From NCBI GenBank assembly GCA_964394625.1, contig CAYMYK010000005.1:1-47612 (forward strand): a stretch of DNA of 47,612 nucleotides, in the 5' to 3' direction. The stretch is from an uncultured Pirellulales bacterium (GTDB lineage: Bacteria > Planctomycetota > Phycisphaerae > Sedimentisphaerales > Anaerobacaceae). Each line of letters opens with the position of its first letter. Position 1 is the first letter of the stretch. Both the position numbers and the translations under genes were made by a program. A model generated the notes under the pieces. That model was not told the DNA's origin. It ran no database searches and worked only from the letters and a program-made list of their open reading frames with translations. This document shows positions 11,652 through 41,566 of this stretch, one piece after another.

Positions 11652-12422
11652 ATGGGCTGGTTCAAGCGACGACGGCGAGAAGAAACGGCGGCCGGGGCTT
11701 TTCCGAGCGAATGGCTTTCGATTATCGAGAGGAACGTGCCTTATTACGGGCGGCTGACAGAGGCCGACAGGACAGAGCTTCAGAGGCATATCCTTATATT
11801 CCTTTCGGAGAAACGATTCGAGGGCTGTCGGGGTCTTCAGATTACCGATGAGATTCGCCTGACGGTGGCGGCGCAGGCATGCATTCTGCTTTTGCACCGG
11901 CGGACGGATTATTATCCGGGGTTGAAAACGATATTGCTCTATCCGGAGGCATACGTGGCGAGGGCGAGAAGGCGCATCGAGGGCGGGCTGATAGCCGAGG
12001 GCGAGGAGGTTCGATTGGGCGAATCGTGGCGGCGGGGCTCGGTTGTGCTGAGCTGGGATGACGTTCGCCGTGGGGCGGCGGATATTCAGGACGGGCAGAA
12101 CGTGGTGTTTCACGAGTTCGCACATCAGCTTGACAGCTCGGCGGGCCGCGGCGACAGCAGCGAGGTTCTCCGACGGCGGTCGAGCTTTATTGCCTGGGCG
12201 CGGGTGCTGGGCGCGAATTACGAACAGTTACGGCGGGATGTGGATGCGCACAGGCCGACGGTTCTGCGTGCTTATGGTGCGGTTAGCCCGGCGGAGTTTT
12301 TTGCGGTTGCGACGGAGGTGTTCTTCGAGAGGTCTGGCGAGCTGGCAAAAAAACATCCGGAACTATATCGTGAGCTGAAGAATTTTTACCACCAAGACCC
12401 GGCGGGAGAGGGGGGAAATTGA
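11652..12422 (+). CDS. mtfA: MtfA-like zinc-dependent peptidase (M90 family)
   Basis: The HExxH motif VVFHEFAHQLD and the overall layout match Mlc titration factor A family proteins. Confidence 0.65.
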   Translation: MGWFKRRRREETAAGAFPSEWLSIIERNVPYYGRLTEADRTELQRHILIFLSEKRFEGCRGLQITDEIRLTVAAQACILLLHRRTDYYPGLKTILLYPEAYVARARRRIEGGLIAEGEEVRLGESWRRGSVVLSWDDVRRGAADIQDGQNVVFHEFAHQLDSSAGRGDSSEVLRRRSSFIAWARVLGANYEQLRRDVDAHRPTVLRAYGAVSPAEFFAVATEVFFERSGELAKKHPELYRELKNFYHQDPAGEGGN

Positions 12423-12562
12423 CTATTTTCTATTGACTATTGCCTATTGGCTGTTTGGGATTGCAGGCGGGGATTGATTATTGGTTATCGATAGGTTAGT
12501 ATTGGGTGATTGAAATTAGCCCGGCGGCGGTCGGGAGCTTTTTTGTGTGGAGGTGTTTGGAA

Positions 12563-13687
12563 ATGAAGCTGGGTCGTGAGTTAATGTTGGCGGCAGCTTT
12601 GCTGGTGATGGTAAAGGGCGTGGCCTGTTTCGCAGAGGACAAACGGATAGAGACATTGTCGAGCGGGGCGAGCGCACCGGATTTTAATCTGCCGGGTGTT
12701 GACGGGAAGATGCACCGGCTCGGCGATTATGCGGATGCGAAGGTGCTGGTTGTGATATTTACGTGTAATCACTGCCCTGCCGCACAGGCGTACGAAGGGC
12801 GGATAACGAAGTTAGTGGCCGATTACAGGGGTAAGGGTGTAGCGGTAGTTGCAATATCGCCCAACGACCCGCTGGCGATTCGGTTGGATGAGTTGGGTTA
12901 TACTGATTTGAGCGATTCGCTTGCGGAGATGAAGATACGGGCGGCGGAAAAGGGATTTAATTTTCCGTATCTTTACGACGGGCGGACGCAGAAGGTATCG
13001 ATGGCATACGGGCCTGTGACGACGCCGCACGTGTTTGTCTTCGACAAAGAACGGAAACTGCGTTACGAGGGCGGAATTGATAATTCGCAGGACCCGAGGT
13101 TAGTGAAGAGGCATTTTTTACGGAATGCTATAGATGCGCTTTTGGCCGGGCGCCAGGCAGCGGTGAAGCAGACGAAAACGTTCGGGTGCTCAATTAAGTG
13201 GTCGAGCAAACGCGAATGGGTCGCCAAGGCGTTCGAAGAGTGGGCGGCCGAGCCGGTTGTTTTGAATGAGATTGATGCGTCAGGCCTGAAGAATATTTTG
13301 AGCAACGATACGAAGAAGCTTCGATTAGTGAACCTCTGGGCGAGCTGGTGCGGGCCCTGCGTGATAGAATTTCCGGAATTAGTGAGGACGAACCGGATGT
13401 ACCGGGGGCGGGATTTCGAGATGGTGACTGTCAGCACCGATATGGTAAGTATGGCTGAGCGGGCGCTCGGTTTTTTGAAGGAGCGGGAGGCATCGATGCA
13501 AAACTGTATCTTTGCCGGGAGCAGGCAGGGATTCATAGAGGCGTTTGATGTGCAGTGGCGCGGGGCCATTCCTTATACGTTAGTGATTAAGCCGGGCGGT
13601 GAGATTATCTACCGGCACGAGGGGATGGTTAACCCGCTGGAGCTCAGGCGTGTGATTGTGGGGCAATTGGGGCGGTACTTTTTCTGA
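12563..13687 (+). CDS. Secreted tandem thioredoxin-fold thiol:disulfide oxidoreductase with two TlpA/redoxin-like domains
   Basis: ATG 12563 is preceded by SD GGAGGTG, and the N-terminus is a signal peptide. Domain 1 carries FTCNHCP. Domain 2 carries the classical WASWCGPC motif. The track start at 12506 is upstream of the SD. Confidence 0.7.
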   Translation: MKLGRELMLAAALLVMVKGVACFAEDKRIETLSSGASAPDFNLPGVDGKMHRLGDYADAKVLVVIFTCNHCPAAQAYEGRITKLVADYRGKGVAVVAISPNDPLAIRLDELGYTDLSDSLAEMKIRAAEKGFNFPYLYDGRTQKVSMAYGPVTTPHVFVFDKERKLRYEGGIDNSQDPRLVKRHFLRNAIDALLAGRQAAVKQTKTFGCSIKWSSKREWVAKAFEEWAAEPVVLNEIDASGLKNILSNDTKKLRLVNLWASWCGPCVIEFPELVRTNRMYRGRDFEMVTVSTDMVSMAERALGFLKEREASMQNCIFAGSRQGFIEAFDVQWRGAIPYTLVIKPGGEIIYRHEGMVNPLELRRVIVGQLGRYFF

Positions 13688-13881: not shown

Positions 13882-16488
13882 ATGTCAGGTAAATCAGCAG
13901 GTGTCGTTGCGTTGATGGTTATATCGGCGGTAGTTTTCGGTGCGACGTATCCGGGTCAGATGGGCGTTAACATTGGTGGTATCGGTGAAGGGGGGGGTAT
14001 ATTTGTCGATATGGCGAAAGAGCACCACCGGTACAGCCGGCTGCCGAGCGGGACGATGGCGTATGACAGTGAGGGTTGGCCTTCGTGTGATGCGCAGCTT
14101 GTTATGGATTTTCGCTTAGTGGCGGAATGGGTTGGAGAGATTGACGACCCGGAAGAGTACCGGTATGACAACACGGGGACGTATAAGTGTTCGTTTGTCG
14201 GGCAGGCGACGTTGAGCAGCACGGGAGCGAGTATTGCGAACAAGAGCTATAATTCAGGGACGAACACGACGACGTTCGATCTTATCATTACGCAGAAGCG
14301 AACGTACTGCCATCTGGGCTTTACGAACACCAAACGGACGGCTGTAAGCAGTACGGATACCGGATTTACGGATTTGAAAATGATCAAGCCGGGGTATGCG
14401 GGTGATACGATGCAGACCTTTACCGATGATTTCATAAACACGCTGACGAGCGCAAGTTTCGGCGTGGTTCGGTATATGAACGTGACGGCGACGAACGGTC
14501 ACGAGGCAACTTATCCTGCGACACTGTCGTGGTCGGACCGCAAGCTTGTGACTGATGCGGCGCAGGTTCCGATCGATGCCATAGGCAAGCCACAGGGGGC
14601 GGCATGGGAGTATGTGATACAGATAGCGAACATGACGGAAATGGACCCATGGATCAACGTGCCGGTCTCAGCGACAACGGATTATGTGACGCAATTAGCG
14701 ACGATGTTCAGAGACAATCTCGACCCGAACCTGCACGTTTACGTTGAGAACAGCAACGAGGTGTGGAACGGTATTTTCTATCAGCAGATTTGGAGTGCGT
14801 CTCAGGCCGGCGCATTGGGGATAGATGAACATGAGAACTACGCACGGCGGACGGTAGAGCTTGCGCAGATATTTGAGAGTGTGTACGGCACGGGTTCTCT
14901 GAACAATCGGGTGCGGGTTATGCTTTGCTGTCACGCCCCGATGCTGAAGTGGTGGGTCGAGACCTATATGATTCCGTACATTAACAGCAACTTCCCTGGC
15001 ACGGCATCTGACTACATATATGCAATAGCGAGACAGACATATTTCGGTGCAGGTGACCCGAGTCCGGACACAAGGACGATTGACCAGCTGCTTGACGCCT
15101 GCATGACGGACATAAACGGGCAGATGAGCGAGACGGGAGGGGGCGAAGCGGGCCGGCTTCAGTGGGTGCAGAAGGCGGCGACGTGGGGACTTGTCGGTGG
15201 AGCGTGCTCTTATGAGGGAGGGTATCACTCCCCGGCGAACGGTGTGCTGGAGAATCTGGACAACAAGATTATGATGCATCGTGTGCCGCGAGGCGGCGAA
15301 GTTCTTAAGTACAATTACGATGATGCGTTCTTTGCGCTTGGAGCCAATATAGCGATACAGTTTACGCTACAGAGCTCTGCCACTCGCTACGGGTTCTGGG
15401 GCCTCACCGACGACTTGGCCAATCCGGATCGTAACTACAAGTTTCAGGCGATGCGTGATGTTTTAGGGGATGAAGCGTTGCTGGCGGACTTTGATAACAG
15501 TGGCATTGTAGATATTATGGACTTCAACGTGATGGCGACCGACTGGATGCTGCAGGATGGTTTCACGGGCTCGCAAGACCCGGGCTACGTTGGTCTTGTT
15601 GCCTTCTGGCCGCTGGACGACTCTTCAGGTGATGTGGCAGTCGATGACTCCGGGAACGCAAGAGACGGGATGTTGGGTTCGGCGGTCGGCGCCGATGCGA
15701 ATGACCCGACGTGGTTTAACGATGTCGAGCGCGGGTGGTGTCTGTATTTTGACGGCGGCGACTACATTCAGTGCGGCGGGGGCAAGAACGCAGGGGCCGA
15801 CCCGTGCGACCCGGGGACATGGACGGACCCGTGTACGTGGGCTGATTTTGCAAATTCGTCATTTACGACATCGGTCTGGATAAACCAGAACGACAGCCCG
15901 GACTGGGGCGTGTTCGTCGGCAAGGGTGAGATTCAGTATAAGCTTCAGTTCCTGCTTGGTCTTGACCTCTTGCACTTTGCGCTTCCGCGGACGCCGGGCG
16001 GCGGATTAGGAGGCAGCACTACGATATTGAACAACCAGTGGTACCACATCGCCGGGCTCTGGGACGAGGATAATGAATCGGCGTACCTTTACCTTGACGG
16101 TGTATTAGACAACTGGATGGATTACGGCACGGCGCATCCGGAGGGCGCCGGGGTGTTTATCGACAATGACTGCAACGTGTTGATTGGTGCGACGGTGAGC
16201 GAGGGTTATCTTGAGGACCCGAACCGGCATAAAATAGGCGGCTGCCCGCTTCGTGGTGACGCGGCGGGATACGCCGAGCGATTCTTTAAGGGCTACCTGA
16301 GTGAAGTCAGGATGTATGAGCGGGCGCTGAACGAACTGGAGATAAAGTATTTAGCCGGTATCCCATCAACATACGTTCCGTTGGATTCCGTTGCGAACAT
16401 ATATGATGAGGAGCCGCAGGGCTTGAAGGCGGTGAATTTCAAAGACTATGCGATACTGGCGGACGAATGGATGGTGGCAGGCCCTTAG
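13882..16488 (+). CDS. Secreted glycoside-hydrolase-like protein. The N-terminus is a TIM-barrel-like catalytic region of uncertain family. The C-terminus carries a dockerin-like Ca-binding repeat, a LamG jellyroll domain and a second dockerin-like half-repeat.
   Basis: Strong SD AAGGAGGAG and an N-terminal signal anchor. YVENSNEVWNG resembles the clan GH-A NEP acid/base region. DFDNSGIVDIMDFNVMATDWM is dockerin-like. CLYFDGGDYIQCGGG...WYHIAGLWDE...YLYLDG is LamG. The C-terminal tail reads LKAVNFKDYAILADEW. Confidence 0.55.
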   Translation: MSGKSAGVVALMVISAVVFGATYPGQMGVNIGGIGEGGGIFVDMAKEHHRYSRLPSGTMAYDSEGWPSCDAQLVMDFRLVAEWVGEIDDPEEYRYDNTGTYKCSFVGQATLSSTGASIANKSYNSGTNTTTFDLIITQKRTYCHLGFTNTKRTAVSSTDTGFTDLKMIKPGYAGDTMQTFTDDFINTLTSASFGVVRYMNVTATNGHEATYPATLSWSDRKLVTDAAQVPIDAIGKPQGAAWEYVIQIANMTEMDPWINVPVSATTDYVTQLATMFRDNLDPNLHVYVENSNEVWNGIFYQQIWSASQAGALGIDEHENYARRTVELAQIFESVYGTGSLNNRVRVMLCCHAPMLKWWVETYMIPYINSNFPGTASDYIYAIARQTYFGAGDPSPDTRTIDQLLDACMTDINGQMSETGGGEAGRLQWVQKAATWGLVGGACSYEGGYHSPANGVLENLDNKIMMHRVPRGGEVLKYNYDDAFFALGANIAIQFTLQSSATRYGFWGLTDDLANPDRNYKFQAMRDVLGDEALLADFDNSGIVDIMDFNVMATDWMLQDGFTGSQDPGYVGLVAFWPLDDSSGDVAVDDSGNARDGMLGSAVGADANDPTWFNDVERGWCLYFDGGDYIQCGGGKNAGADPCDPGTWTDPCTWADFANSSFTTSVWINQNDSPDWGVFVGKGEIQYKLQFLLGLDLLHFALPRTPGGGLGGSTTILNNQWYHIAGLWDEDNESAYLYLDGVLDNWMDYGTAHPEGAGVFIDNDCNVLIGATVSEGYLEDPNRHKIGGCPLRGDAAGYAERFFKGYLSEVRMYERALNELEIKYLAGIPSTYVPLDSVANIYDEEPQGLKAVNFKDYAILADEWMVAGP

Positions 16489-16525
16489 TGTCAAGCAGAA
16501 AAACAAGTTGATGAGGAGAAATATA

Positions 16526-19153
16526 ATGTTCAGCAAAAGTGTGCGGGGTGAAGTTATTGTTTTTTTGACAGTGCTGGCGTTGTTTAGTTGTGCGGTGAGC
16601 CCCTTGCCGGCGAGCGGGCAGACAGTGACGATTGACGAGGGCACGAGGTACCAGACGATAGAGGGCTGGGGGACGTGCACCGGCGGGAGCTTAAGCTACG
16701 ATGCGGATTGGCGGTATGCTTACAAGTATCTCGGGTGTAATCTGCTTCGGTTTCCGATGGGCAAGGAGGTGCTGATAGCACCGGACGGCAATTATGCGAC
16801 GGCTGTGGAATTAGTGGATGATATTAACAGCAACGTCGGTGCGATGGATTTTAACACGCAGGCGGTCGGTGGTGATACGGCGTTGTGGCTTATGGACAAT
16901 GCCCTTGAGCCGGAGCGGGTGAAGATTGTTGGTTCGGTGTGGTCGCCTCCGCACTGGATGAAAGGGCCGACGGGAGCGGAGCAGTATCATGTGACGAACC
17001 CTTCGGTTTTGAAGCCGACACCGTGGCTGAGCGAGGGGACGTGGGGCGACAGTATCGGGGGTCGGCTGCTTCAGGACGCGGGCAATTTAGAGCAGTTCGG
17101 GCGCTACATTGCGGCCTGGGCGAAGGGTTTCGAGAACCACTACGGGATGCCGGTATATGCGGTGAGCTTACAGAATGAGCTTAGTTTTGAAAATCCGTTC
17201 GACAGCTGCACTTACCTGCACGGGTATGGCGAACCTGATCCGATCGGGGGGCAATACTGGCAGTATGCAGGGGCGCTTAAGGCGGTGAAGGATGAGTTTG
17301 CGCAGATGGAGACAGAGCACGGGGCGGGCTTTATGGCTACGCAGATTATGGGGCCTCACATGGCGAGCATAAACACGAGCCCGAGCAGCCCGTGGGCGTT
17401 GAATGACCAGATGCAGTTTATCCAGGCGGTGAAGGACCATGCGGATGCGGGTTTGACAGACTTTTTGCATATTTATACGAATAACTATAGTGCGCCGGCG
17501 TATTCGAGGGCGAAGATGTGGCGGGCGTACTGGGAGGGTAAGGATTCGATGCCCGGTGAGCCGTGGGCCGGCTGGCTTTATGCTTCGGGTATAAGCAGCG
17601 ACGGGAAAAAATCGTGGAATTCGGAGGCGGGTGGACACGGTACGAACTGGAACGGCTGTCTTGACCTGGCGCAGGACTTACATGACCAGTTGGTGTGGGG
17701 CAATGTGAGCGCATATATTTACTGGCAGTTTGCCAACAGCGGTGTTGAGACGAGTCAGCACGATCTGGTTGCGGCGCCGGATCTGGCCAGGCCGACGAAG
17801 AGCAAGAAGTACTGTGCGGCGAAACACTTCTTCAGGGCAATTCGGCCCGGGGCCGAGCGTGTGTCGGCGACTTTCGCCGGCGGCAACAGCTCATACGGGT
17901 ACGGCAGTGACCCGATGCGGACGGATTTGAGCTTGAACGTTAGCGCTTACGTGCACGACGAAGACGAGACGGTTACGATTGTCCTGGTGAACATGCGGGC
18001 GAACAATTATTCGGTGACAATCAATGTGCCGCCGCTTTTCGGGATTACGGTGTACAGCGTTCACCGCTCGAGCGCAAGCGAGAACTTCAAGCAGTTGAGT
18101 GATTTGGCCGTATCGGGCGGTCAGGTATCGGTGACGGTGCCCGGTGAGAGCGTTATGACGCTTCACGGGCCGCCTTTGATTGACTTAGAGGCGGATTTCA
18201 ATCACGATGATGTCGTCGATATTAACGACCTGAACACAATGGCGGCGGACTGGATGATGACGGATAGGTTCGAGGGGGCGAAGGACCCGGGGACGGAGAA
18301 CCTTGTGGTGTGCTGGGATATGAACGACCCGAACGACGGGACGACAGTATCGGATTCGAGCGGCAACGAGCATACGGGGGTGTTCGGGAGCGGCAGTTAT
18401 GACCCGAGCTGGTACAACGACGGTCAGCGGGGTTGGTGTCTGTACTTTGACGGAACCGATTACGTGGATTGCGGCGGAGGTAAGGATGCGGGGCAGCCGT
18501 ACACATGGGCGGACTTCAACGAGTCGTCATTCACGTTGGCCGGCTGGGTAAAACAGGAGGCGACACTTGGCTGGGCGAACTTCGTATCGAAGGGTGAGAT
18601 TCACTGGAAGCTGCAGATGCTCTTAGGGTTGAACTATTCGCACTTTGCGTTCCCGAGGGCACCAGGAGCAGGTGTTGGAGGAACGAAGCTGTTCACGAAT
18701 AACAAGTGGTACCATGTAGCAGGTGTCTGGGACGACGAGCAGGAAGTGGCACGTCTCTACCGGGACGGATTTTTAGACGGAGTGCTCTATTGGGGTGATG
18801 CGCATCCCGATAGGTCGGGGATATTTGTGGACAATGACTGCAACGTACTGCTCGGTGCGACAGTAAGTGAAGACTACGAAGAGCTGCCGGAGCGGCACAA
18901 GATAGGCGGCTGTCCGATACGTGACGGGGCGAACTATGCGGAGCTGTTCTTCAGGGGTTGGCTGAGCGATGTGCGGCTGTACGATCGCGCGCTGATAAAG
19001 GACGAGATAAAGTATTTAGCGGGCGGCGAGGCAGTGTACTATGAGTTAGAGTCGCCGGCGAACGTATGGGATGAGGAGCCAGCCGGCTTGAAGGCGGTGA
19101 ATTTCAAAGACTATGCGATACTGGCGAACGAGTGGAGGAGGGCGCTTAATTAG
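16526..19153 (+). CDS. Secreted GH30-like glycoside hydrolase carrying the same C-terminal dockerin-like/LamG/dockerin-like module
   Basis: ATG 16526 with SD GAGGAG 7 nt upstream, then a signal peptide MFSKSVRGEVIVFLTVLALFSCAVSPLPASGQ. The N-terminal motif TIDEGTRYQTIEGWGT resembles the GH30 Q-x-I-(D/E)-G-(F/W)-G start. The C-terminal module is paralogous to 13882-16488. The track start at 16448 lies inside the upstream gene. Confidence 0.6.
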   Translation: MFSKSVRGEVIVFLTVLALFSCAVSPLPASGQTVTIDEGTRYQTIEGWGTCTGGSLSYDADWRYAYKYLGCNLLRFPMGKEVLIAPDGNYATAVELVDDINSNVGAMDFNTQAVGGDTALWLMDNALEPERVKIVGSVWSPPHWMKGPTGAEQYHVTNPSVLKPTPWLSEGTWGDSIGGRLLQDAGNLEQFGRYIAAWAKGFENHYGMPVYAVSLQNELSFENPFDSCTYLHGYGEPDPIGGQYWQYAGALKAVKDEFAQMETEHGAGFMATQIMGPHMASINTSPSSPWALNDQMQFIQAVKDHADAGLTDFLHIYTNNYSAPAYSRAKMWRAYWEGKDSMPGEPWAGWLYASGISSDGKKSWNSEAGGHGTNWNGCLDLAQDLHDQLVWGNVSAYIYWQFANSGVETSQHDLVAAPDLARPTKSKKYCAAKHFFRAIRPGAERVSATFAGGNSSYGYGSDPMRTDLSLNVSAYVHDEDETVTIVLVNMRANNYSVTINVPPLFGITVYSVHRSSASENFKQLSDLAVSGGQVSVTVPGESVMTLHGPPLIDLEADFNHDDVVDINDLNTMAADWMMTDRFEGAKDPGTENLVVCWDMNDPNDGTTVSDSSGNEHTGVFGSGSYDPSWYNDGQRGWCLYFDGTDYVDCGGGKDAGQPYTWADFNESSFTLAGWVKQEATLGWANFVSKGEIHWKLQMLLGLNYSHFAFPRAPGAGVGGTKLFTNNKWYHVAGVWDDEQEVARLYRDGFLDGVLYWGDAHPDRSGIFVDNDCNVLLGATVSEDYEELPERHKIGGCPIRDGANYAELFFRGWLSDVRLYDRALIKDEIKYLAGGEAVYYELESPANVWDEEPAGLKAVNFKDYAILANEWRRALN

Positions 19154-20225: not shown

Positions 20226-22994
20226 TCAGATTTCCGAAGAAAAACCGTAATTTCCGGAGCCGATGTGGAAGACGGCGGTGCCGTTTTCGCTGCGGAGGAA
20301 ATCGACGCCCGGTACCTGATCGAAGGCAGCGGCTTTGCCTGACTCGGTGACCAAGAGCACATCGACAGTGGGTATATAAACGGTGGCGGTAGTATTTGCA
20401 GGGATGGTCACGTCGAGGGTAAGACTGTCGCCGTCGAGCTTCCAGCTTGTGGCGATTTTACCGTTGATGGAATTGTAGGCGGCTTTTGCCCAAGTGAGGT
20501 TTCCGCCCGGCTGCGGCTTTATAATGATATTGCGAAAGCCGGGCCCGTCGGTGTCGATACCGCCGATGGTCTTGAACATCCACTCCGCCACGGCGCCGAA
20601 GGAGTAATGGGAAAAGGAGTTCATACCGGTGTCCTGGAAGCCCTTTTCGGGAGTCCAGCCGTCCCAGCGTTCCCAGATGGAGGTGGCGCCTTGTTTGATT
20701 GAGAAGCCCCAGGATGGGAACGTATCGTTGCCGAAGAGTTTGTAGGCAACATCGGTTCGGCCGAACTCTGTGAGCGTCGTCATAAGGTCTTTTGTGCCTA
20801 TAAAGCCGGTGGAGAGGTGCTGGTTTCGCTTCTCTGTGCGGTCGATGAGCCGGCTTATCGCAATGGCACTTTTGTCGGGTTCGAGCAGGCCGAACTTTAG
20901 GGCGAGAACGTAAACCGTCTGCGTATCGGATTTGATGGCGCCGTCGTCGGCGACGAATTTTTCGTTGAAGCGTTTTTTGATTTTCTCGAAGAGCTGATTG
21001 TATTCTTGGGCATCGGTTTTTCTTTCGAGCGCCTGAGCAATGCGAGCCATCAGTTTTGTGCTGTGGGCGAAGTATGCGGTTGCCAGGACGGCCTTGTCGG
21101 TCTCGGCGTCAATGCTGAGCCAGTCGCCGTATCCTTTTGCGGGCCTGATGAGGCTATAGCTGTTTTTTTTACAAAAATCTATCCAGTCGGCCATATTGTC
21201 GTAATATCTTTCGAGGACTCGTTTGTCGCCATAGACCTGGTAGATTGTCCAGGGGCAGATGATGCCGGCGTCGGCCCAGGCGGCGGTGCCGCAGCCATCG
21301 GCTATAACCCGCGGAGCGACATCCGGATAAGCGCCGTCGGACCTCTGGGCGTCGGCGAGGTCAACGAGCCATTTTGTAAAGAAGGCGGCGACATCGTTGT
21401 TGTATGTGGCGGCCCTGACGAAGACCTGGGCGTCGCCGGTCCAGCCGAGCCGTTCATCCCTCTGGGGACAGTCGGTGGGAATGTCGATGAAGTTGGCTCG
21501 CTGGGTGGTAACAATATTTTCGTAGAGCTTGTTGGCCATTTCATCGGAGCATTCGAAGACGCCGGCGAGCGGGGTGTCGGAGCTGAGGGTCAGGCCCGTG
21601 ACGTCGTCGATTGTTGGAGTGCCGGGGTAGCCGGTAACCTGGACATATTGGAAGCCGTGGAAGGTGAAGCGGGGCTGATAGATTTCGGTTCCCGCACCTT
21701 TGCAGATATAGGTGTCGGCGGCCCGTGCGTTTCGCAGGTTCGTAAGATAGACGGTGCCGTCGGCCTTGAGGCGCTCGCCGAAGTGCAGGGTGACTTTACG
21801 CCCCTTCGGGCCTTTGACTTTCAGCCGGGCAAAGCCGGCAAAGTTTCTTGCCATATCGAATACAAAGACACCCGGCTTTGGTTCATTGACGCTTACCGGT
21901 TTTATTTCGTCGAACTGCCGGACGGCTGCGCCGGGATACGGCTGTAACATAGCATCTATATGTTTTGTAACATCGACCGGTTTCCAGGAGGTGTCGTTGT
22001 AGTCGCAGTTTGCCCAGCCGGTCAATTCTTTTGCAGTGTCGTACGTTTCACCCATATACAAGTCGGCTTCGCGGATGGGCGAGGCGTTTGCCTTCCAGGA
22101 GCCGTCGGTAATAATCGTATCGTTCGTCCCATCCTCGTATTCGACGTAAAGTTGTGCGAAGAATCTTGTTTTGTCGCCGTAGTTGTCGCGTTTAGGTTTC
22201 CAGCCGAGGTAGCCGGCGTACCAGCCGTCGGCGAGGACGGCGCCGAGGGCGTTTTTGCCCGGGCGCAGCATCCCGGTGACGTCGTATGTATTGTAATAGA
22301 GCCGTTTTTTGTAGTTTGTCCAGCCGGGCGTGAAGTAGTCGTTTCCTACACGCAGCCCGTTGATGTGAAGCTCATAGATACCGAGTGCGGAGGCGTAGAT
22401 GACGGCCCGGCTGACCGGCTTTTCGATGTTGAAGCTTTTTCTCAGGCATACCGCCGGCGGCAGTTTGACCTTATGTGTTTTGATGTACCCGACTTCAACT
22501 TCCGGCAGGTTTTTGCGGGGCAGGTCAGAGCCGACCCACCGGGCCTTGAAATCCGTTTTTTTCAGCAGCCCCATAGACCAAAAGCCCGGCGGCCCATAGT
22601 CGGTAACACAGCCGTCCTGGTCCCAGGAGCGAGCCTTCCAGCAGCATTTCATTCGGCTCTTGAGCAATTTTCCTTTATAAACGACTTGATTTGTCCGGTC
22701 AGAGAGGACTTTGCCGCTGTTCCAGAGGTCCGCACTGTTTTGCCGGAGCTTTTCTTCGGAGCTGGCGACGAGGACTTGATAAGCGGTTTGCTTCTGTACC
22801 CTTTTGTCACTGTCGAGCGTCCAGCTCAGCCGGGGCCCGGCGACAGCAATGGCGAGCGGGTCTTTGAGGTATTCGCATCGCAGATTTTGAATGCGGATGT
22901 CGCTTTCAGGCAGCCCGGCGGATAATTGCGGACCGGCACAGCCGACGATGCTTAATAACAAAACAGTTAGAACAGCGGTAATTAGTTGTGTCAT
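20226..22994 (-). CDS. Alpha-L-rhamnosidase (GH78), secreted
   Basis: N-terminal lipoprotein-like signal. NLRCEYLKDPLAI...PRLSWTLDS...QTAYQVLVASS is the classic GH78 N-terminal signature. The length (922 aa) is typical. Confidence 0.85.
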   Translation of the reverse strand: MTQLITAVLTVLLLSIVGCAGPQLSAGLPESDIRIQNLRCEYLKDPLAIAVAGPRLSWTLDSDKRVQKQTAYQVLVASSEEKLRQNSADLWNSGKVLSDRTNQVVYKGKLLKSRMKCCWKARSWDQDGCVTDYGPPGFWSMGLLKKTDFKARWVGSDLPRKNLPEVEVGYIKTHKVKLPPAVCLRKSFNIEKPVSRAVIYASALGIYELHINGLRVGNDYFTPGWTNYKKRLYYNTYDVTGMLRPGKNALGAVLADGWYAGYLGWKPKRDNYGDKTRFFAQLYVEYEDGTNDTIITDGSWKANASPIREADLYMGETYDTAKELTGWANCDYNDTSWKPVDVTKHIDAMLQPYPGAAVRQFDEIKPVSVNEPKPGVFVFDMARNFAGFARLKVKGPKGRKVTLHFGERLKADGTVYLTNLRNARAADTYICKGAGTEIYQPRFTFHGFQYVQVTGYPGTPTIDDVTGLTLSSDTPLAGVFECSDEMANKLYENIVTTQRANFIDIPTDCPQRDERLGWTGDAQVFVRAATYNNDVAAFFTKWLVDLADAQRSDGAYPDVAPRVIADGCGTAAWADAGIICPWTIYQVYGDKRVLERYYDNMADWIDFCKKNSYSLIRPAKGYGDWLSIDAETDKAVLATAYFAHSTKLMARIAQALERKTDAQEYNQLFEKIKKRFNEKFVADDGAIKSDTQTVYVLALKFGLLEPDKSAIAISRLIDRTEKRNQHLSTGFIGTKDLMTTLTEFGRTDVAYKLFGNDTFPSWGFSIKQGATSIWERWDGWTPEKGFQDTGMNSFSHYSFGAVAEWMFKTIGGIDTDGPGFRNIIIKPQPGGNLTWAKAAYNSINGKIATSWKLDGDSLTLDVTIPANTTATVYIPTVDVLLVTESGKAAAFDQVPGVDFLRSENGTAVFHIGSGNYGFSSEI

Positions 22995-37044: not shown

Positions 37045-37114
37045 TTCATCCCGGCTTCTTCGCCTTGAGATTCCGCATTTTCGAATTTTGCATTTTCAAC
37101 TTTGAATTTCCTAT

Positions 37115-37186
37115 CTACCCGGCCAGGACTCGAACCTGGAATGTAGGCACCAAAAGCCCATGTGTTACCAATTACACCACCGGGTA
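37115..37186 (-). tRNA. tRNA-Gln (anticodon UUG)
   Basis: The reverse complement folds as a 72-nt cloverleaf. The acceptor stem is TACCCGG/CCGGGTA. The D-arm is GTGT-AATTGGTA-ACAC. The anticodon arm is TGGGC-TTTTGGT-GCCTA, giving UUG. The T-arm is CCAGG-TTCGAGT-CCTGG. CCA is not encoded. Confidence 0.8.
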
Positions 37187-37321
37187 ATCCAATTGATAAT
37201 TGATTATTCAATATTGATTAACAGCACCCGGCTGCTGAGATAAAAACAACCAATCATCATTCATCAATAATCAATTCTCATAGCTGTCACGCAAGGCCGT
37301 TCAGAATCGGCCCGAAGAACC

Positions 37322-37420
37322 CCATCGGAGGCTTGAGTCAGCCAAGCCGTGATTCTGCTGACCCCACGCCGCTATTCGCGGCAACCGCAACCCCTTACGA
37401 CGGAGCATACCAAAACGACT
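37322..37420. repeat. Copy 1 of a ~100-bp direct repeat. The core is 45 bp, CATCGGAGGCTTGAGTCAGCCAAGCCGTGATTCTGCTGACCCC, followed by a diverged tail ending ...TACGACGGAGC.
   Basis: An identical 45-mer is present at 40186-40230. The core contains the hairpin GTCAGC-N14-GCTGAC. Confidence 0.6.
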
Positions 37421-37478
37421 ACTATAATACATTGCCCCGCCTTGATTCAACAGTTTTTCTCGATTTCTGAAAAAACTT

Positions 37479-38690
37479 TTATAACCCCATTACCCGTTCT
37501 CCAACGGGCGCCAGCGCCGGCAGATTGCTCTCAGGATTGTCGAGATAGAAATACGCACAGCAAGACCAGTCGTCCTGACGCTCGAAAAGCCCGTATGTCG
37601 GCGGATTCGCCTCGTCGGAAATGTCAACTTCAACCAGGCCGGGACCGTTCTTATACAAAGGCTTGCCAAGCTCAGCCATCTGCTCGCGATTGCCCGGGCT
37701 CCAGCAGCCGATCTGATGGATAGTCACACGGATATCTCTGCGGAAGTATATCGGGTCGAGGACATGCCAGCGGTAGAAGCAGAACTGCATCTTCTCATGG
37801 TCGGCTAAGTGACAGCCCTGGTAAAGATTGGCGTATTGGCCCTGTCCCCATGCGGTGCCGATATAATCCTCGGTGCCCGTCCCGCAAAGCGTCGGCAATT
37901 CCATATCGCCGTCCAGATATACCTTAACCTCGCCCTCGCCCCACCAGCTCTTGAAATAAAGCTCCTGGTTTGCGATGGCCCCGATATTGGCGCCGAGAAA
38001 GCGTCCGGCCCCTTCGACTTTCGGCAGTATCTCGAAATCCTTCTGCATTGTCGTCGGGTTCTCACGTCTGAAATTCGCGTGAAAATAAAGCATGTTGTCG
38101 GCAAACTTATCGCCGAGGGTAAAATCGACATCGTAATAAACCGAACCGAGTGTCCGGCTGGTCTCGTTCGTCAGCACGACCTTCATACCCGTCTTGAACG
38201 GCATGGGGATATAGCAATTGAAGCTGCGTCCTTCCGGGCTTGAAAACAATGCCGACTCGAACGTTGACATCCTGCCGATACCGTGGCAAAAGAAATCGCC
38301 GAACGGAGCCGAGACCGCGGGCTTATCCGCCCCGTCCCAGTAAATATCAAGCCTCAGCCCTCTCAGCATAACCGCATCCCGCTCGCTGATAGTAAACCAA
38401 ATTCTGCGAACCATACCGCTTTGCCCTTTGACCTCGGCAAGCACTTTGCTCTCGCCTCGTTCCATAGGAAAACAAGGCGAACCCTTCCTTCCTGCGTTGA
38501 CTTTACCGCCGGCCCCTCGCTGAGAATCCCAGTTCTCAGGACTCGCCCAGCGTGTCTCGACTCCTTCAGGCAAAACATAAAACGTTCCCGCCACATCTGA
38601 ACACACCACGCTGTCCACAAAGCTCAACAAAACCACTAACACCACGCACAACCTGACCATAATCGTTCTCATGACATGCCTCCATAACAC
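37479..38690 (-). CDS. Secreted DUF2961-family protein (possibly GH172-like), paralog A
   Basis: Signal peptide, then conserved blocks RKGSPC, EVKGQSGMVRR, YWDG.DKPAVSAP.GDFF and LCGTGTEDYIGT.WGQG. About 60% identity to the adjacent paralog. Confidence 0.55.
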   Translation of the reverse strand: MLWRHVMRTIMVRLCVVLVVLLSFVDSVVCSDVAGTFYVLPEGVETRWASPENWDSQRGAGGKVNAGRKGSPCFPMERGESKVLAEVKGQSGMVRRIWFTISERDAVMLRGLRLDIYWDGADKPAVSAPFGDFFCHGIGRMSTFESALFSSPEGRSFNCYIPMPFKTGMKVVLTNETSRTLGSVYYDVDFTLGDKFADNMLYFHANFRRENPTTMQKDFEILPKVEGAGRFLGANIGAIANQELYFKSWWGEGEVKVYLDGDMELPTLCGTGTEDYIGTAWGQGQYANLYQGCHLADHEKMQFCFYRWHVLDPIYFRRDIRVTIHQIGCWSPGNREQMAELGKPLYKNGPGLVEVDISDEANPPTYGLFERQDDWSCCAYFYLDNPESNLPALAPVGERVMGL

Positions 38691-38783
38691 AAATGCAACA
38701 ATTCCTGACGTAAATCCGTACCGCTATTCTAACGGAAAAGCCCTCCGATTCAACCATTTGAAATAGCACACAGAAACTGCGAA

Positions 38784-40010
38784 TTACAATCCCTTTACCC
38801 GCTCTTGCACGGGCGCCAGCGCCGGCAGATTACTCACAGGCTTATCTAAGTAAAAATAAGCACAGCTCGACCAGTCGTCCTGACGCTCGAAAAGCGGCAC
38901 ATCCTTCTGAGTCTCCCAGTCAATTTCAACAAGCCCCGGCCCGGTCTTGTGAAGAACCTGCCTGCGAGCCTTGAACTTATCGAACGTACCACTGTCCGCC
39001 GCCCCTATCTGCTGAATCGTCACTCGTATATCGCTGCTGAAATAAACCGGGTCCGGTATATGCAGCCGGTAAAAACAAAACTGCATGTTCTCATGGTCGG
39101 CTAAGTGACAACCCTCGTAAGGCTGCACATATCTGCCCTGTCCCCACCCCGTACCGATGTAATCCTCCGTCCCCGTCCCGCAAAGCGTCGGGTAATCCGT
39201 GTCGCCGTCAAGGTATATCTTCACCTCCCCCTCACCCCACCACGAGTTCAGGTATTTTTCTGTATCCGCAATCACTCCGACGTTCACACCCAGAAACCTC
39301 CCCTCCAACTTCGGCAAAAACTCGTAATCCTTCTGCAAAATCGTCGGGTTCTCACGCCGCCAGTACGTATGAAAATACATAACATCGTCGCCCAGCTTGT
39401 CCCCCACGGTATAATCAACCTCGAAAAATAACGCCCACAAACCGTATTCGGTCTCGTTTGTTATCTCAATCTTCATCCCCTTCTTAAACGGCATCGGAAT
39501 ACTGCAATTGAAGCTGCGCCCCTCAGGACTCGAAAAAAGCGCCGAGTTGAACTTCGACATCTTGCCCAGCCCGTGACAGAAAAAATCCCCCAACGGCGCC
39601 GATACCGCCGGTTTATCCTCACCGTCCCAGTACATATCTATCCGCGCACCGCGAAGCATCTTACCTAATCGCTCTCGCTCCTCTTGCGGCCCCCACTCCC
39701 AGCAGCCGATGATCGTCCCCCACATCCGCCGAACCATTCCGCTTTGTCCCTTCACCTCCGCCACAACCTGGCTTTTTCCCGGTTCCAGCCCATAACACGG
39801 CGACCCCTTCCGACCGCCCTTGGTCTTTCCGCCCTGGCCCTTCAGAGCCTGCGGATTCTCCGCCGTCGCCCATCGTGTTTGCACACCTTTCGGCAATACA
39901 TAAAGCGGCGTCGAATCCCCCGCCAATACCGACTCATCCTTTCCCATAACACACCCCGTACAGCAAACAACAACCAATGTCACAAAGACAAAATAACTCT
40001 TCATAACCAA
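38784..40010 (-). CDS. Secreted DUF2961-family protein (possibly GH172-like), paralog B
   Basis: Same conserved blocks as paralog A, with signal peptide MVMKSYFVFVTLVVVCCTGC. Confidence 0.55.
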   Translation of the reverse strand: MVMKSYFVFVTLVVVCCTGCVMGKDESVLAGDSTPLYVLPKGVQTRWATAENPQALKGQGGKTKGGRKGSPCYGLEPGKSQVVAEVKGQSGMVRRMWGTIIGCWEWGPQEERERLGKMLRGARIDMYWDGEDKPAVSAPLGDFFCHGLGKMSKFNSALFSSPEGRSFNCSIPMPFKKGMKIEITNETEYGLWALFFEVDYTVGDKLGDDVMYFHTYWRRENPTILQKDYEFLPKLEGRFLGVNVGVIADTEKYLNSWWGEGEVKIYLDGDTDYPTLCGTGTEDYIGTGWGQGRYVQPYEGCHLADHENMQFCFYRLHIPDPVYFSSDIRVTIQQIGAADSGTFDKFKARRQVLHKTGPGLVEIDWETQKDVPLFERQDDWSSCAYFYLDKPVSNLPALAPVQERVKGL

Positions 40011-40185
40011 TTCTCCTTATCAAAAGGAAATCACAAATGCCACGGGCTACGCATCGGCCTCGATAGCATTTTGTTCGCTTCCTCATCACTAACAAAACGT
40101 TCTTTCATAGGATCCCACTTAAGCTTTCGCCCCACCTTCATCGTGATTAGCCCCAGCTGACCGACCGACATTGAGCGATGCCCCG

Positions 40186-40290
40186 CCATCGGAGGCTTGA
40201 GTCAGCCAAGCCGTGATTCTGCTGACCCCGATTGCGCTCACCGCAGCAAATGCTACCCCATACGACGGAGCTTCAAGACAGTAACTTTAC
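40186..40290. repeat. Copy 2 of the ~100-bp direct repeat, in the same orientation as copy 1
   Basis: The 45-nt identity with 37322-37366 is followed by a related tail ending ...ATACGACGGAGC. Confidence 0.6.
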
Positions 40291-40369
40291 CCGATTGTCG
40301 CTCTCCGGTCAGCACTGTTTTTTATTCTTTTTGCCAAAAAAATGTTTGGCCCCCGCAATCGAGCTCAAT

Positions 40370-40478
40370 CCCTTTTTACGCCGACAAGCCGGAATATGTT
40401 GTTGAAAGATACCGGACGGATTATAATCATTACAGCCCGCACGGAAGCTTGAGCCCTATGCACCGCAAACAGCGATGA
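40370..40478 (+). pseudogene. Remnant C-terminal tail of a DDE (rve-type) transposase/integrase
   Basis: The translation ...KPEYVVERYRTDYNHYSPHGSLSPMHRKQR* resembles the conserved ...W..DYN..RPHSSLG..P C-terminus of IS3/IS481-family transposases. No catalytic core lies upstream. Confidence 0.4.
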
Positions 40479-40519
40479 CGAGACGGCGGCAACCTTCACA
40501 GGAAAGAACGCAAAATAAG

Positions 40520-41566
40520 ATGAAGAAGCTCAACCGCAGCATAATGTGGCTGGCGTTAGCGGCAATATGGTTACTCGCGGCCCTGTCTGTCCTGGGCGCC
40601 TTTTTGGGAGCGGAGGATGCTGGGCGATTTTTCAACTCGATGCCGCTTGGTTTTTTCTGGTATGCCCTGGCAGTGCTGCTGGCAGCCGGTTTTGTTGAGT
40701 TTCCCCGGCTGCTTCGCAGACCGGGGCTTTTTATGATTCACGCAGGTTGCTTATTGGTGCTTGCCGGGGGGATGTGGGGCTCGCAGGCCGGCCATCGACT
40801 CCAAAAGCGGTTTTTAGGCATAAACAGGATTCCCGGCGGTTATATGGTTATTCCCGAGGGAAATTCGGAAAATTGTGTAATTGCAGAAGATTTCAAGCAC
40901 CGGCTGGGCGAGCTGCCCTTTAGTATCCGGCTGAAGGATTTTCGTCTTGGATACTACCGGGCGGACAAAGATTCGGCTCGGCGGCTATACATAAAAACGC
41001 AGGATGGGCGGCATTTGCAGCTTGCCGCCAGGGCCGGCGAGGAGGTTTCCTTAGGCACAGATAAGGGCAAGCTCAAAGTGCTGGATACTTTCAGAAATTT
41101 CAAGATTCGGCTCGAAGACGGCAAAAACATAGTAACCGACGAACAGGCCAGCGGAGAAAATCCGGCGGTGGAGGTTGAGATTGAACTGCCCGACGGGAGC
41201 AGTTATACGCGTTATGTGTTTGAGCGTTTTGCAGGTTTTAGTCACGCTGAAGACGGCTTGCAGTTGAGTTATGTTTCGCAGGGGCCTCGAATGATACGTG
41301 ATTATTTCAGTGATGTGGTGGTCATCGAAAATGGAAAAGAGGTGGTAAGTAAAACAATCGAGGTGAACCATCCGTTACATTACGGAGGGTATCATTTTTA
41401 TCAGTACTCCTATGACCCGCAGGCAGAGAGTTATACCGTTTTGTCGGTGACGTCTGATTCGGGTCTGTATGCGGTATATGGCGGATACTGGCTGCTTGGT
41501 TTTGGGGTATTGTGGCAGTTTTGGCTCAGGCATATAGTCGAGCATATAAAAAATCGAAAAACATAA
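40520..41566 (+). CDS. ccsB: Cytochrome c biogenesis protein ResB/Ccs1 (CcsB)
   Basis: N-terminal transmembrane helices, a large periplasmic domain and a C-terminal NHPLHYGGYHFYQYS...transmembrane segment typical of ResB. The start is moved to ATG 40520 (MKKLNRS), downstream of the track start. Confidence 0.7.
   Translation: MKKLNRSIMWLALAAIWLLAALSVLGAFLGAEDAGRFFNSMPLGFFWYALAVLLAAGFVEFPRLLRRPGLFMIHAGCLLVLAGGMWGSQAGHRLQKRFLGINRIPGGYMVIPEGNSENCVIAEDFKHRLGELPFSIRLKDFRLGYYRADKDSARRLYIKTQDGRHLQLAARAGEEVSLGTDKGKLKVLDTFRNFKIRLEDGKNIVTDEQASGENPAVEVEIELPDGSSYTRYVFERFAGFSHAEDGLQLSYVSQGPRMIRDYFSDVVVIENGKEVVSKTIEVNHPLHYGGYHFYQYSYDPQAESYTVLSVTSDSGLYAVYGGYWLLGFGVLWQFWLRHIVEHIKNRKT

Follow-up and report, generated by a model that had tools for sequence, protein, structure and literature searches.

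Two direct repeats in the 47,612-nucleotide stretch of DNA analysed here (the window; contig CAYMYK010000005.1 of assembly GCA_964394625.1, from an uncultured Pirellulales bacterium) bracket a pair of tandem DUF2961 genes next to a tRNA-Gln gene, which raises the question of what these repeats are and how the genes came to lie between them. An earlier note, made from the sequence letters, read the layout as a decayed composite mobile element or integrative islet that had delivered or duplicated the DUF2961 genes, with a dispersed structured element, such as a miniature inverted-repeat transposable element (MITE) or a small RNA (sRNA), as the alternative. The repeats are two copies of a structured RNA on the strand of the tRNA-Gln (minus), and we show that this RNA forms a conserved, covarying structure at the 5' end of a tRNA-Gln-led operon. 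They represent two copies of the 5' domain of this leader RNA, and the pair probably came about through the insertion of a cassette of ~2.9 kb, with a copy of its own, into the resident leader.

A repeat search and a string search of the window both returned an exact direct repeat of 44 nucleotides at 37322-37365 and 40186-40229, on the same strand, for which none of 100 shuffles gave matches; the earlier note was right that the repeat is exact and same-stranded, and had put its length at 45. Beyond the 44-mer the copies remain alike at 78% up to 37406/40271, ending in TACGACGGAGC, and a weaker likeness (~60%) extends over the next ~70 nt. The layout around them is as had been described: the repeats enclose the two DUF2961 genes (37479-38672 and 38784-40004, both on the minus strand by Pfam), tRNA-Gln(UUG) stands on one side (37114-37187, minus strand, by ARAGORN and Rfam), the AT-rich ATTGAT tract beside it is a 25-nt inverted repeat (I1, 37190-37280), and the copies, 135 nt and 3 kb upstream of tRNA-Gln, do not include the tRNA or its 3' end. 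The genes glmU, prs and rplY follow tRNA-Gln on the minus strand, and ResB/CcsA-type genes from 40475 run opposite to the tRNA-Gln and DUF2961 genes. A covariance model of the element (R1), run with filters off over the whole window, gave exactly two matches, copy A and copy B, which differ in extent: copy B lacks the helix P4 and the tail, so that R1 is unmatched there and matches only through P1'. A suspected remnant of the element between the DUF2961 genes (38691-38783) found no support from R1. The features concerned are the following, with A-type and B-type denoting the two kinds of leader to which the copies belong.

37114-37187, minus strand: tRNA-Gln (UUG) (ARAGORN; Rfam 59.3 bits)
37284-37408, minus strand: copy A, complete leader RNA element (R1 102.6 bits, E 1e-26, full length)
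40183-40271, minus strand: copy B, 5' domain (P1, P1b, B-type P2, P3, P1b', P1') of the resident B-type leader (R1 75.2 bits)

Folding gave -40.7 kcal/mol for the minus strand of copy A (z -2.5) against -24.3 for the plus strand. The minus strand is the RNA strand, because its fold is far more stable and because P1b and P3 contain invariant G-U pairs, which would be C-A mismatches on the other strand. The architecture is that of a three-way junction (P1/P1b, a variable P2 and an invariant P3), followed by P4 and then by a tail complementary to the P3 loop; the hairpin GTCAGC-N14-GCTGAC, already noticed within the repeat, is P3. The fold of the entire copy A leader agrees with the covariance model, and its parts are:

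37406-37398 with 37327-37319, minus strand: P1, 9 bp, GCUCCGUCG with CGAUGGGGU
between P1 and P1b, minus strand: bulge UAA, 3 nt, with an invariant A in the family
37394-37390 with 37332-37328, minus strand: P1b, 5 bp, GGGGU with GCCUC
37382-37368, minus strand: P2 hairpin
37364-37357 with 37342-37335, minus strand: P3, GGGUCAGC with GCUGACUC, with a 14-nt loop at 37356-37343
37313-37294, minus strand: P4
37292-37287, minus strand: tail (G)CGUGA

Across the family, P2 is hypervariable and dispensable, being absent in some species and up to ~130 nt long, often AU-rich, in others, whereas P3, its 14-nt loop (AGU AUCACGG CGUG) included, shows almost no variation. P1' is followed in some species by an optional extra hairpin and then by a short conserved joiner, the variable hairpin P4 and the tail CUCCGUGACA. 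Approximately 60 nearly invariant nucleotides are gathered in the junctions, the P3 loop and the tail, and the peripheral stems vary. The CCGUGA of the tail is complementary to the UCACGG of the P3 loop, and a pseudoknot between loop and tail is predicted.

The helices covary. In an alignment of 32 sequences (A3), 97.9% of cells pair and 13 pairs are changed on both sides; none of 500 shuffles reached any of the five measures, and sliding the partner strand brought pairing to 33-53%. In an alignment of 102 model-aligned sequences (A4), P3, in which, together with its loop, the search pattern had fixed 20 positions, pairs in 99.9% of cells, with GC replaced by AU at one pair in 32 sequences, and P4 pairs in 95% of cells, with covariation at 6/6 of its pairs. 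Since A4 misplaces the 5' strand of P1 where P2 is long, P1 was recounted with P2 excised: over 92 unique sequences, with the 5' strand located partly through complementarity and also marked by an invariant CG-nAn-GGGG motif, 96.1% of cells pair, in 53 strand combinations, a value as high as which was seen in none of 1000 shuffles, and slid partners gave 36-39%.

The family pattern (ATCACGNCNTNGNTGANTCANGCCTC) was built from the loci of GlmU relatives and scanned over one genome per species, with at least 119 matches, each from a different species-level Planctomycetota assembly and one per assembly, five complete chromosomes included. In 122 of the 131 extracted matches tRNA-Gln(UUG) lies 70-330 nt downstream on the same strand, nearly all exceptions being contig ends, and it is followed by glmU-prs-L25 or, in five loci, directly by prs-L25. 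Contigs found independently through GlmU homologues likewise carry one element each upstream of tRNA-Gln-glmU; the exception is L001 (GlmU 95%), which has two copies like the window, but around a single GH172 gene (the class to which DUF2961 now belongs). A 22-mer from the B-type P2, searched against metagenomes, had the L001 contig as its sole match; a scan of viral contigs for the element gave no matches, and identical-protein look-ups of the GlmU and GH172a of the window returned no record. The homologues of the window GlmU are from Phycisphaerae-type Planctomycetota, and the assembly labels among the matches listed are Sedimentisphaerales, Phycisphaerae, Phycisphaerales and Planctomycetota; the 'Pirellulales' labels on one series of metagenome-assembled genomes are probably loose. 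At one locus, L085 (CP070782.1, Phycisphaerales bin164), the element (2093-2320) comes after a PfkB gene and is followed by ~100 masked bases and then by the 3' half of a tRNA (GTTGGTTCGAATCCAACCCGGCCCA), with convergent genes that include a tubulin-like protein. We had considered this element as a truncated orphan copy and rejected the idea, the apparent truncation being a masked run of N.

Searched with Rfam 15, the window yields only tRNA at the gathering threshold, the surroundings of both copies only noise at E<=10 (snoRNA, miRNA and AniS at E>1), and eight other species no match at E<=1. The literature on structured RNAs or riboswitches of Planctomycetes and Phycisphaerae, and searches with sequence strings, turned up nothing relevant, and the RNA family appears to be undescribed. 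Signal recognition particle RNA, 6S, 5S, tmRNA, HDV-like and hammerhead ribozymes, glmS, c-di-GMP-II, boxA and the K-turn were also compared by eye, without a fit to any of them, in agreement with Rfam. A T-box leader was also rejected: Rfam gives no T-box match, and the CAA/CAG at J3/1b covaries with position 20 (A-A to G-G), so it is not a free codon.

The features next to the element in the window are listed here.

37421-37450, minus strand: promoter A, -35 TTGAAT, 18-nt spacer, -10 TATAGT, ending 14 nt before P1 (promoter scan)
40284-40312, minus strand: promoter B, -35 CTGACC, 17-nt spacer, -10 TAAAGT, with a T-run/A-run before it (read from the sequence)
37188-37283, minus strand: AU-rich spacer forming one long hairpin between the tail and tRNA-Gln (inverted repeat I1; folds; alignment A5)

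Promoter B has 8 of the 12 consensus positions, which is below the scan threshold, so it was not reported by the promoter scan; the -35 at its counterpart in L133, a contig to which we return below, is TTGACC. Family-wide, agreement with sigma70 at 9 or more of the 12 positions is seen in 74 of 105 unique upstream regions, against 4 of 106 in a control region, and the -10 hexamer ends 11-18 nt before P1. The RNA would then start a few nucleotides after a sigma70-type promoter, and the order along the transcript is leader, tRNA-Gln(UUG), (glmU), prs, rplY, pth, rpsF, ssb, rpsR, rplI. The spacer to the tRNA is AU-rich throughout the family (GC about 0.39), ~100 nt long and usually a single long hairpin, and like hairpins occur after the tRNA. 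The window scan found no terminator-like site between the element and tRNA-Gln, and the spacer hairpin has no U-tract.

Both the P2 insertions and the spacers on the two sides of tRNA-Gln consist of long AU-rich hairpins of short periodic units that vary from lineage to lineage, such as ATTGATTA, ATTTATGA, AGTTTTGAGT, AAGTGCAAAG and GCGTGATGCG (window 37188-37283; L010, L013, L016, L018, L023, L029, L036, L098, L105 and others). These hairpins look like processing stems grown by slippage, and are possibly RNase III sites. A second ATTGATTATTGGTTATCGAT tract, akin to the unit of the tRNA-Gln spacer, is found at 12473-12492 (plus strand), in the short gap that separates a peptidase M90 gene (11652-12422) from one for a redoxin/thioredoxin (12506-13687); a search for tracts of this type gave 8 matches in the window against 0.6 expected. 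Short tandem GAAAATGC-type repeats stand between tRNA-Gln and glmU (37045-37113, minus strand) and also in L133, with TTGATTA repeats instead in L001.

How, then, did the window acquire two copies? The comparison that bears on this most directly is with L133, found through the look-up of GlmU homologues (GlmU 94% identical), which has a single, complete, uninterrupted B-type element adjoining tRNA-Gln, and relative to which the segment between the repeats is an indel. Over 175 nt, promoter included, the L133 element shares 87.4% identity with copy B, as opposed to 70.9% with copy A, and its spacer and tRNA match the window sequence downstream of copy A (alignment A5); the window spacer (37188-37283) is ~95% identical to that of L133 and is therefore resident DNA. 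In L002, an A-type promoter and leader are contiguous with GH172 at 88-89% identity, and the incoming DNA therefore brought its own leader. The 44-mer core is identical in L133 also, so that the 44-nt identity between the copies is simply the invariant core of the family. The B-type sequence in the window ends at CCGAUGGCGG, where copy B is abutted directly by the stump of an oxidoreductase gene. The inserted genes and the two junctions are as follows.

37479-38672, minus strand: GH172a (DUF2961, now classed GH172), second gene of an old tandem pair (PF11175, E 1e-72)
38784-40004, minus strand: GH172b (DUF2961; Pfam, E 4e-71)
40031-40182, minus strand: stump of a GFO/IDH/MocA oxidoreductase gene, the last ~56 codons and stop (tblastn, nucleotide identity to L004)
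40178-40182, minus strand: left junction, microhomology GGCAU common to the B-type optional hairpin (GGCUGGCAU, L133) and the GFO gene (GUUGGGCAUCGG, L004)
about 37284-37292, minus strand: right junction in the conserved tail CGUGACAG(C) / CGUGACAGC, A-type upstream and L133-like downstream (A5)

From these sequence comparisons we infer a history of insertion into an L133-like leader. The ancestor would have had a single B-type leader, as L133 still does, and a piece of ~2.9 kb from a related lineage would have been inserted between P1' and the tail of this resident leader, carrying the GFO/IDH/MocA stump, GH172b, GH172a, a terminator, and an A-type promoter with the leader from P1 to P4, with GGCAT as the left-hand join and CGTGACAGC as the right-hand one. 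The outcome would be a chimeric, complete element before tRNA-Gln, composed of an A-type 5' part and the resident tail, and an orphaned resident promoter and 5' domain, copy B, now placed before the GH172 genes. Copy B is identical to the copy B of L001 at 87 of 88 nt and the promoter B region at 69 of 70 nt; together, copy B and its promoter differ at 2 of 158 positions between the two contigs, compared with 15 of 178 in the adjacent stump. This suggests that selection continues to constrain copy B, which plausibly serves the GH172 genes as promoter and 5' leader, and the terminator scan of the window found no terminator-like site between it and these genes.

Other origins for the pair have to be weighed against insertion. 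If copy B were a tandem duplicate of copy A made in this genome, its 5' half having diverged while gene conversion kept the 3' 44 nt, the junction of the P1' end to the GFO gene at a microhomology would look just the same; yet the B-type element is the sole complete leader in L133, and copy B is not a recent copy of A, because in promoter and P2 it shares only ~50-60% identity with copy A, while the unconstrained stump of the same event is still 84% identical to L004, which leaves tandem duplication very unlikely. An identical core with diverged arms and a tRNA nearby superficially resembles a tRNA/tmRNA island, and one could take the repeats for attL and attR of an island brought into the RNA gene by a site-specific recombinase, with the 44-mer as the crossover core. 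Against this, no integrase gene is found within the 2.9-kb segment or next to it; the B-type sequence of copy B runs through P1' and the A-type sequence of copy A through P4, so that no crossover took place in the core; the left junction falls inside a truncated oxidoreductase gene at a 5-nt microhomology, and L133 has the same 44-mer; we regard such an island as very improbable. A Campbell-type single crossover in the 44-nt core is likewise excluded, each copy keeping its own type on both sides. Least probable of all, to a degree that makes it scarcely credible, is that a mobile element (composite transposon, MITE or dispersed repeat) moved the DUF2961 genes and left the repeats as its ends or relics. 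Direct repeats around a 2.8-kb segment of accessory genes, and a weak transposase remnant nearby, speak for it; but in the pattern scan the element occurs once per assembly, always at tRNA-Gln, in at least 119 assemblies, the covariance model finds only two copies in the window even with filters off, its covariation is typical of a functional RNA, and its internal inverted repeats are the covarying RNA helices themselves. The repeat search of the window found neither inverted repeats at the ends of either copy nor target-site duplications, Pfam found no transposase among the main non-overlapping open reading frames (ORFs) of at least 170 aa, and viral contigs contained no matches. What the earlier note proposed survives in part: delivery of the DUF2961 genes by an islet is right in outline (the indel relative to L133, and a cassette at 89-90% nucleotide identity to other lineages against flanks at 70-82%), but not the mobile-element mechanism, since terminal inverted repeats and an integrase are both lacking and the joins consist of microhomologies of 5-9 nt. 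Its alternative of a structured element is right as well, although the element is not dispersed. The event did not duplicate the genes, and the same gene order without repeats, which the note had named as evidence against its own proposal, is seen in part, in L002, where GH172b, element and tRNA-Gln follow one another with a single element.

The transposase remnant that the earlier note placed next to the repeats, as the C-terminus of an rve-type protein, comes down to a weak 21-residue match:

40392-40454, plus strand: weak remnant of an rve_3 integrase-core C-terminus (PF13683, E 0.007, 16.5 bits against a cut-off of 26.5)

It is sub-threshold and lies, on one side only, outside both the repeats and the insertion, and nothing ties it to the event. 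The region from promoter B to the ResB-like gene (40342-40520) is 95% identical in L001 and not alignable with the ~37 nt of L133 upstream of the promoter T-run; judging from the sequence, an old IS insertion may have reshaped the region upstream of the leader.

The genes of the cassette can be compared with those of the relatives. The GFO stump (40201 to 40034, minus strand) is 75% identical at the amino acid level to residues 399-454 of the 454 of GFO1 in L004 (tblastn) and 84-85% identical in nucleotides, and an intact GFO gene precedes GH172b in both L004 and L002; the rest of the GFO gene is absent from the window, together with the ancestral upstream genes (3-keto-disaccharide hydrolase, AP-endonuclease-2-fold protein, DUF6263, RlmN). 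The GH172 tandem pair is older than the insertion event, because L004 has both genes (93% aa for GH172b, 84% aa for GH172a); L001 and L002 have GH172b only. GH172b is 93% identical in amino acids and 89-90% in nucleotides to its counterparts in L002 and L004, against 70-82% nucleotide identity to the same lineages for the housekeeping genes glmU, prs, L25 and pth, and Prs, GlmU, L25, Pth, S6 and L9, at 58-86% aa between the lineages, also fall below GH172b. These values suggest a recent horizontal exchange of the sugar cassette upstream of the leader. In the relatives, the region from DUF6263 to the leader is a variable hot spot of sugar genes. At their 3' ends, GH172a and GH172b share 84% identity over 112 nt (D4). 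Against the two genes of the window L001 has a single GH172 gene (1563-2789), the end of which carries what in the window comes after GH172a (A5), which suggests that the single gene of L001 arose by deletion through recombination between the GH172 paralogues. Elsewhere in the window, an ORF of 2082 aa (2846-9094, plus strand) has no Pfam match at E<=1e-4, and near it are two Laminin_G_3 proteins of ~870-900 aa (13882-19153) and an alpha-L-rhamnosidase (20226-22994).

What the RNA does has to be judged from its position and its form. The function that we consider most likely, and advance tentatively, is that of a cis-acting leader that controls elongation, processing or stability of the tRNA-led transcript via a ligand or protein; we favour it because the operon that the element heads is always the same one, because the element lacks its own terminator, and because its 5' domain is kept before the GH172 genes. 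Transcription would proceed from the adjacent promoter, and the leader would be separated from the tRNA by processing. Almost as likely is that the element is the gene of a stable trans-acting small RNA, which uses the tRNA operon for its transcription and for processing by way of the AU-rich hairpin and RNase P. Like AU-rich hairpins flank the element and the tRNA, as processing spacers do in operons of stable RNAs, the loops are invariant while P2 tolerates large expansions, as in housekeeping RNAs, no terminator-type expression platform is present, and the L085 element precedes another tRNA without glmU or prs; on the other hand, the element is not followed by its own terminator and invariably heads this one operon, and the truncated copy B, which stands before mRNA genes, is nearly unchanged between the window and L001. 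Of these two readings, the leader in cis has only a slight edge. It seems unlikely that the element belongs to a new class of riboswitch or self-cleaving ribozyme. The ~60 nearly invariant nucleotides in the junctions, P3 loop and tail, the predicted loop-tail pseudoknot, the variable peripheral stems and the 5' UTR position would all suit it, but with one locus per genome in a single context no ligand can be inferred, no expression platform is recognisable, and the pseudoknot is a prediction only. The element shares the conservation and covariation of a riboswitch aptamer and lacks the expression platform, and a classical riboswitch of the terminator type is unlikely because no platform is present. 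To our knowledge, no riboswitch has been described upstream of a tRNA, nor has riboswitch-like or ribozyme control directly before a tRNA gene. One could nevertheless speculate that a new ligand-sensing or self-processing class of RNA gates this tRNA-led housekeeping operon (tRNA-Gln, synthesis of UDP-GlcNAc and PRPP, L25, Pth), a doubtful proposition for which glutamine, PRPP, ppGpp and UDP-GlcNAc would be the obvious candidate signals.

Several points count against a cis-acting leader duplicated by insertion, and should temper the account given above. Where transcription starts, where the RNA is processed and how stable it is are all matters of inference. No terminator or expression platform that sequesters a Shine-Dalgarno sequence follows the element, which weakens the case for a classical riboswitch, and the loop-tail pairing, at 98.7% in 102 sequences, involves two strands that are both invariant and show no covariation, in a loop of which the search pattern fixed a part. 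The counts of the family are lower bounds from a pattern scan, so that diverged extra copies may exist, and in L085 the 3' half of the tRNA is unlike the tRNA-Gln of the family, with no glmU or prs downstream. As to the insertion, the L133 contig reaches only ~100 nt upstream of P1, its upstream neighbours lying outside, and for the right junction the shared sequence amounts to about 9 nt.

The RNA family is a more interesting result than the islet. The element is an uncatalogued, deeply conserved RNA, with a core that is almost invariant across genomes whose GlmU is only 66-95% identical to that of the window. The gene cluster at whose head it sits (tRNA-Gln-prs-rplY-pth) is among the most conserved in bacteria, and the class concerned is little studied and for the most part uncultured. 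For work on the control or processing of mixed operons headed by a tRNA, the element offers a precise target, about 110-130 nt long, for which a fold is defined and a pseudoknot is a candidate; it would also be a new Rfam family. The window, for its part, would be a clean natural example of cassette gain, in which glycoside-hydrolase genes entered the gene of a conserved non-coding RNA. A working, chimeric copy would have been restored by the DNA that came in, while the promoter and 5' domain thereby orphaned would have ended up where they could drive the new genes. Conserved RNA leaders may in this way serve accessory genes as landing pads and promoter donors.

The proposed insertion and the RNA can both be set beside known systems. 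Insertion of foreign DNA by homology-facilitated illegitimate recombination, or mediated by microhomology, is a known process, and the present case resembles it in that the foreign DNA is joined through a microhomology of 5 nt at one end and through a short stretch of homology at the other, and carries a homologue of the target. It differs in that the homologous side amounts here to only ~9 nt of the conserved tail; longer anchors (tRNA-Gln, glmU) were available, yet were not the resolved crossover point. As for the RNA, the three-way-junction riboswitch aptamers with a loop-tail pseudoknot share with it an invariant core, covarying stems and variable peripheral hairpins, from which it is set apart by the absence of an expression platform, its single genetic context and the tRNA directly downstream; none of the Rfam riboswitches, including c-di-GMP-II, glnA, ykkC and ZTP, matches the element. 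Small RNAs are also known to derive from tRNA precursors, as with 3'ETS-leuZ of Escherichia coli, and phage T4 has stable RNAs co-transcribed with tRNAs. The element is like these in being a non-tRNA RNA that is co-transcribed with a tRNA and separable from it by processing of the RNase P/E/III type (for RNAs derived from external transcribed spacers, see PMC5222698 and PMC9514646). Those RNAs are short and weakly structured, or poorly conserved, whereas the element has a 5' domain of ~105-130 nt, longer where P2 is expanded, and a core that is near-invariant over at least 119 species. RNAs that lead operons include the ribosomal-protein leaders and the RNAs of processive antitermination, HK022 put and Bacillus EAR. 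From these the element differs in that no rRNA mimicry and no Nus/boxA-type sequence could be shown for it, and it has no Rfam match. The operon does contain the ribosomal-protein genes rplY, rpsF, rpsR and rplI, as in ribosomal-protein leaders, but tRNA-Gln and usually glmU and prs intervene between the element and the first of them. It is like the operon-leader RNAs (general background in PMC10325885) in several features: one copy per genome, right after the promoter of one conserved operon, confined to one lineage, and structured, with a predicted pseudoknot.

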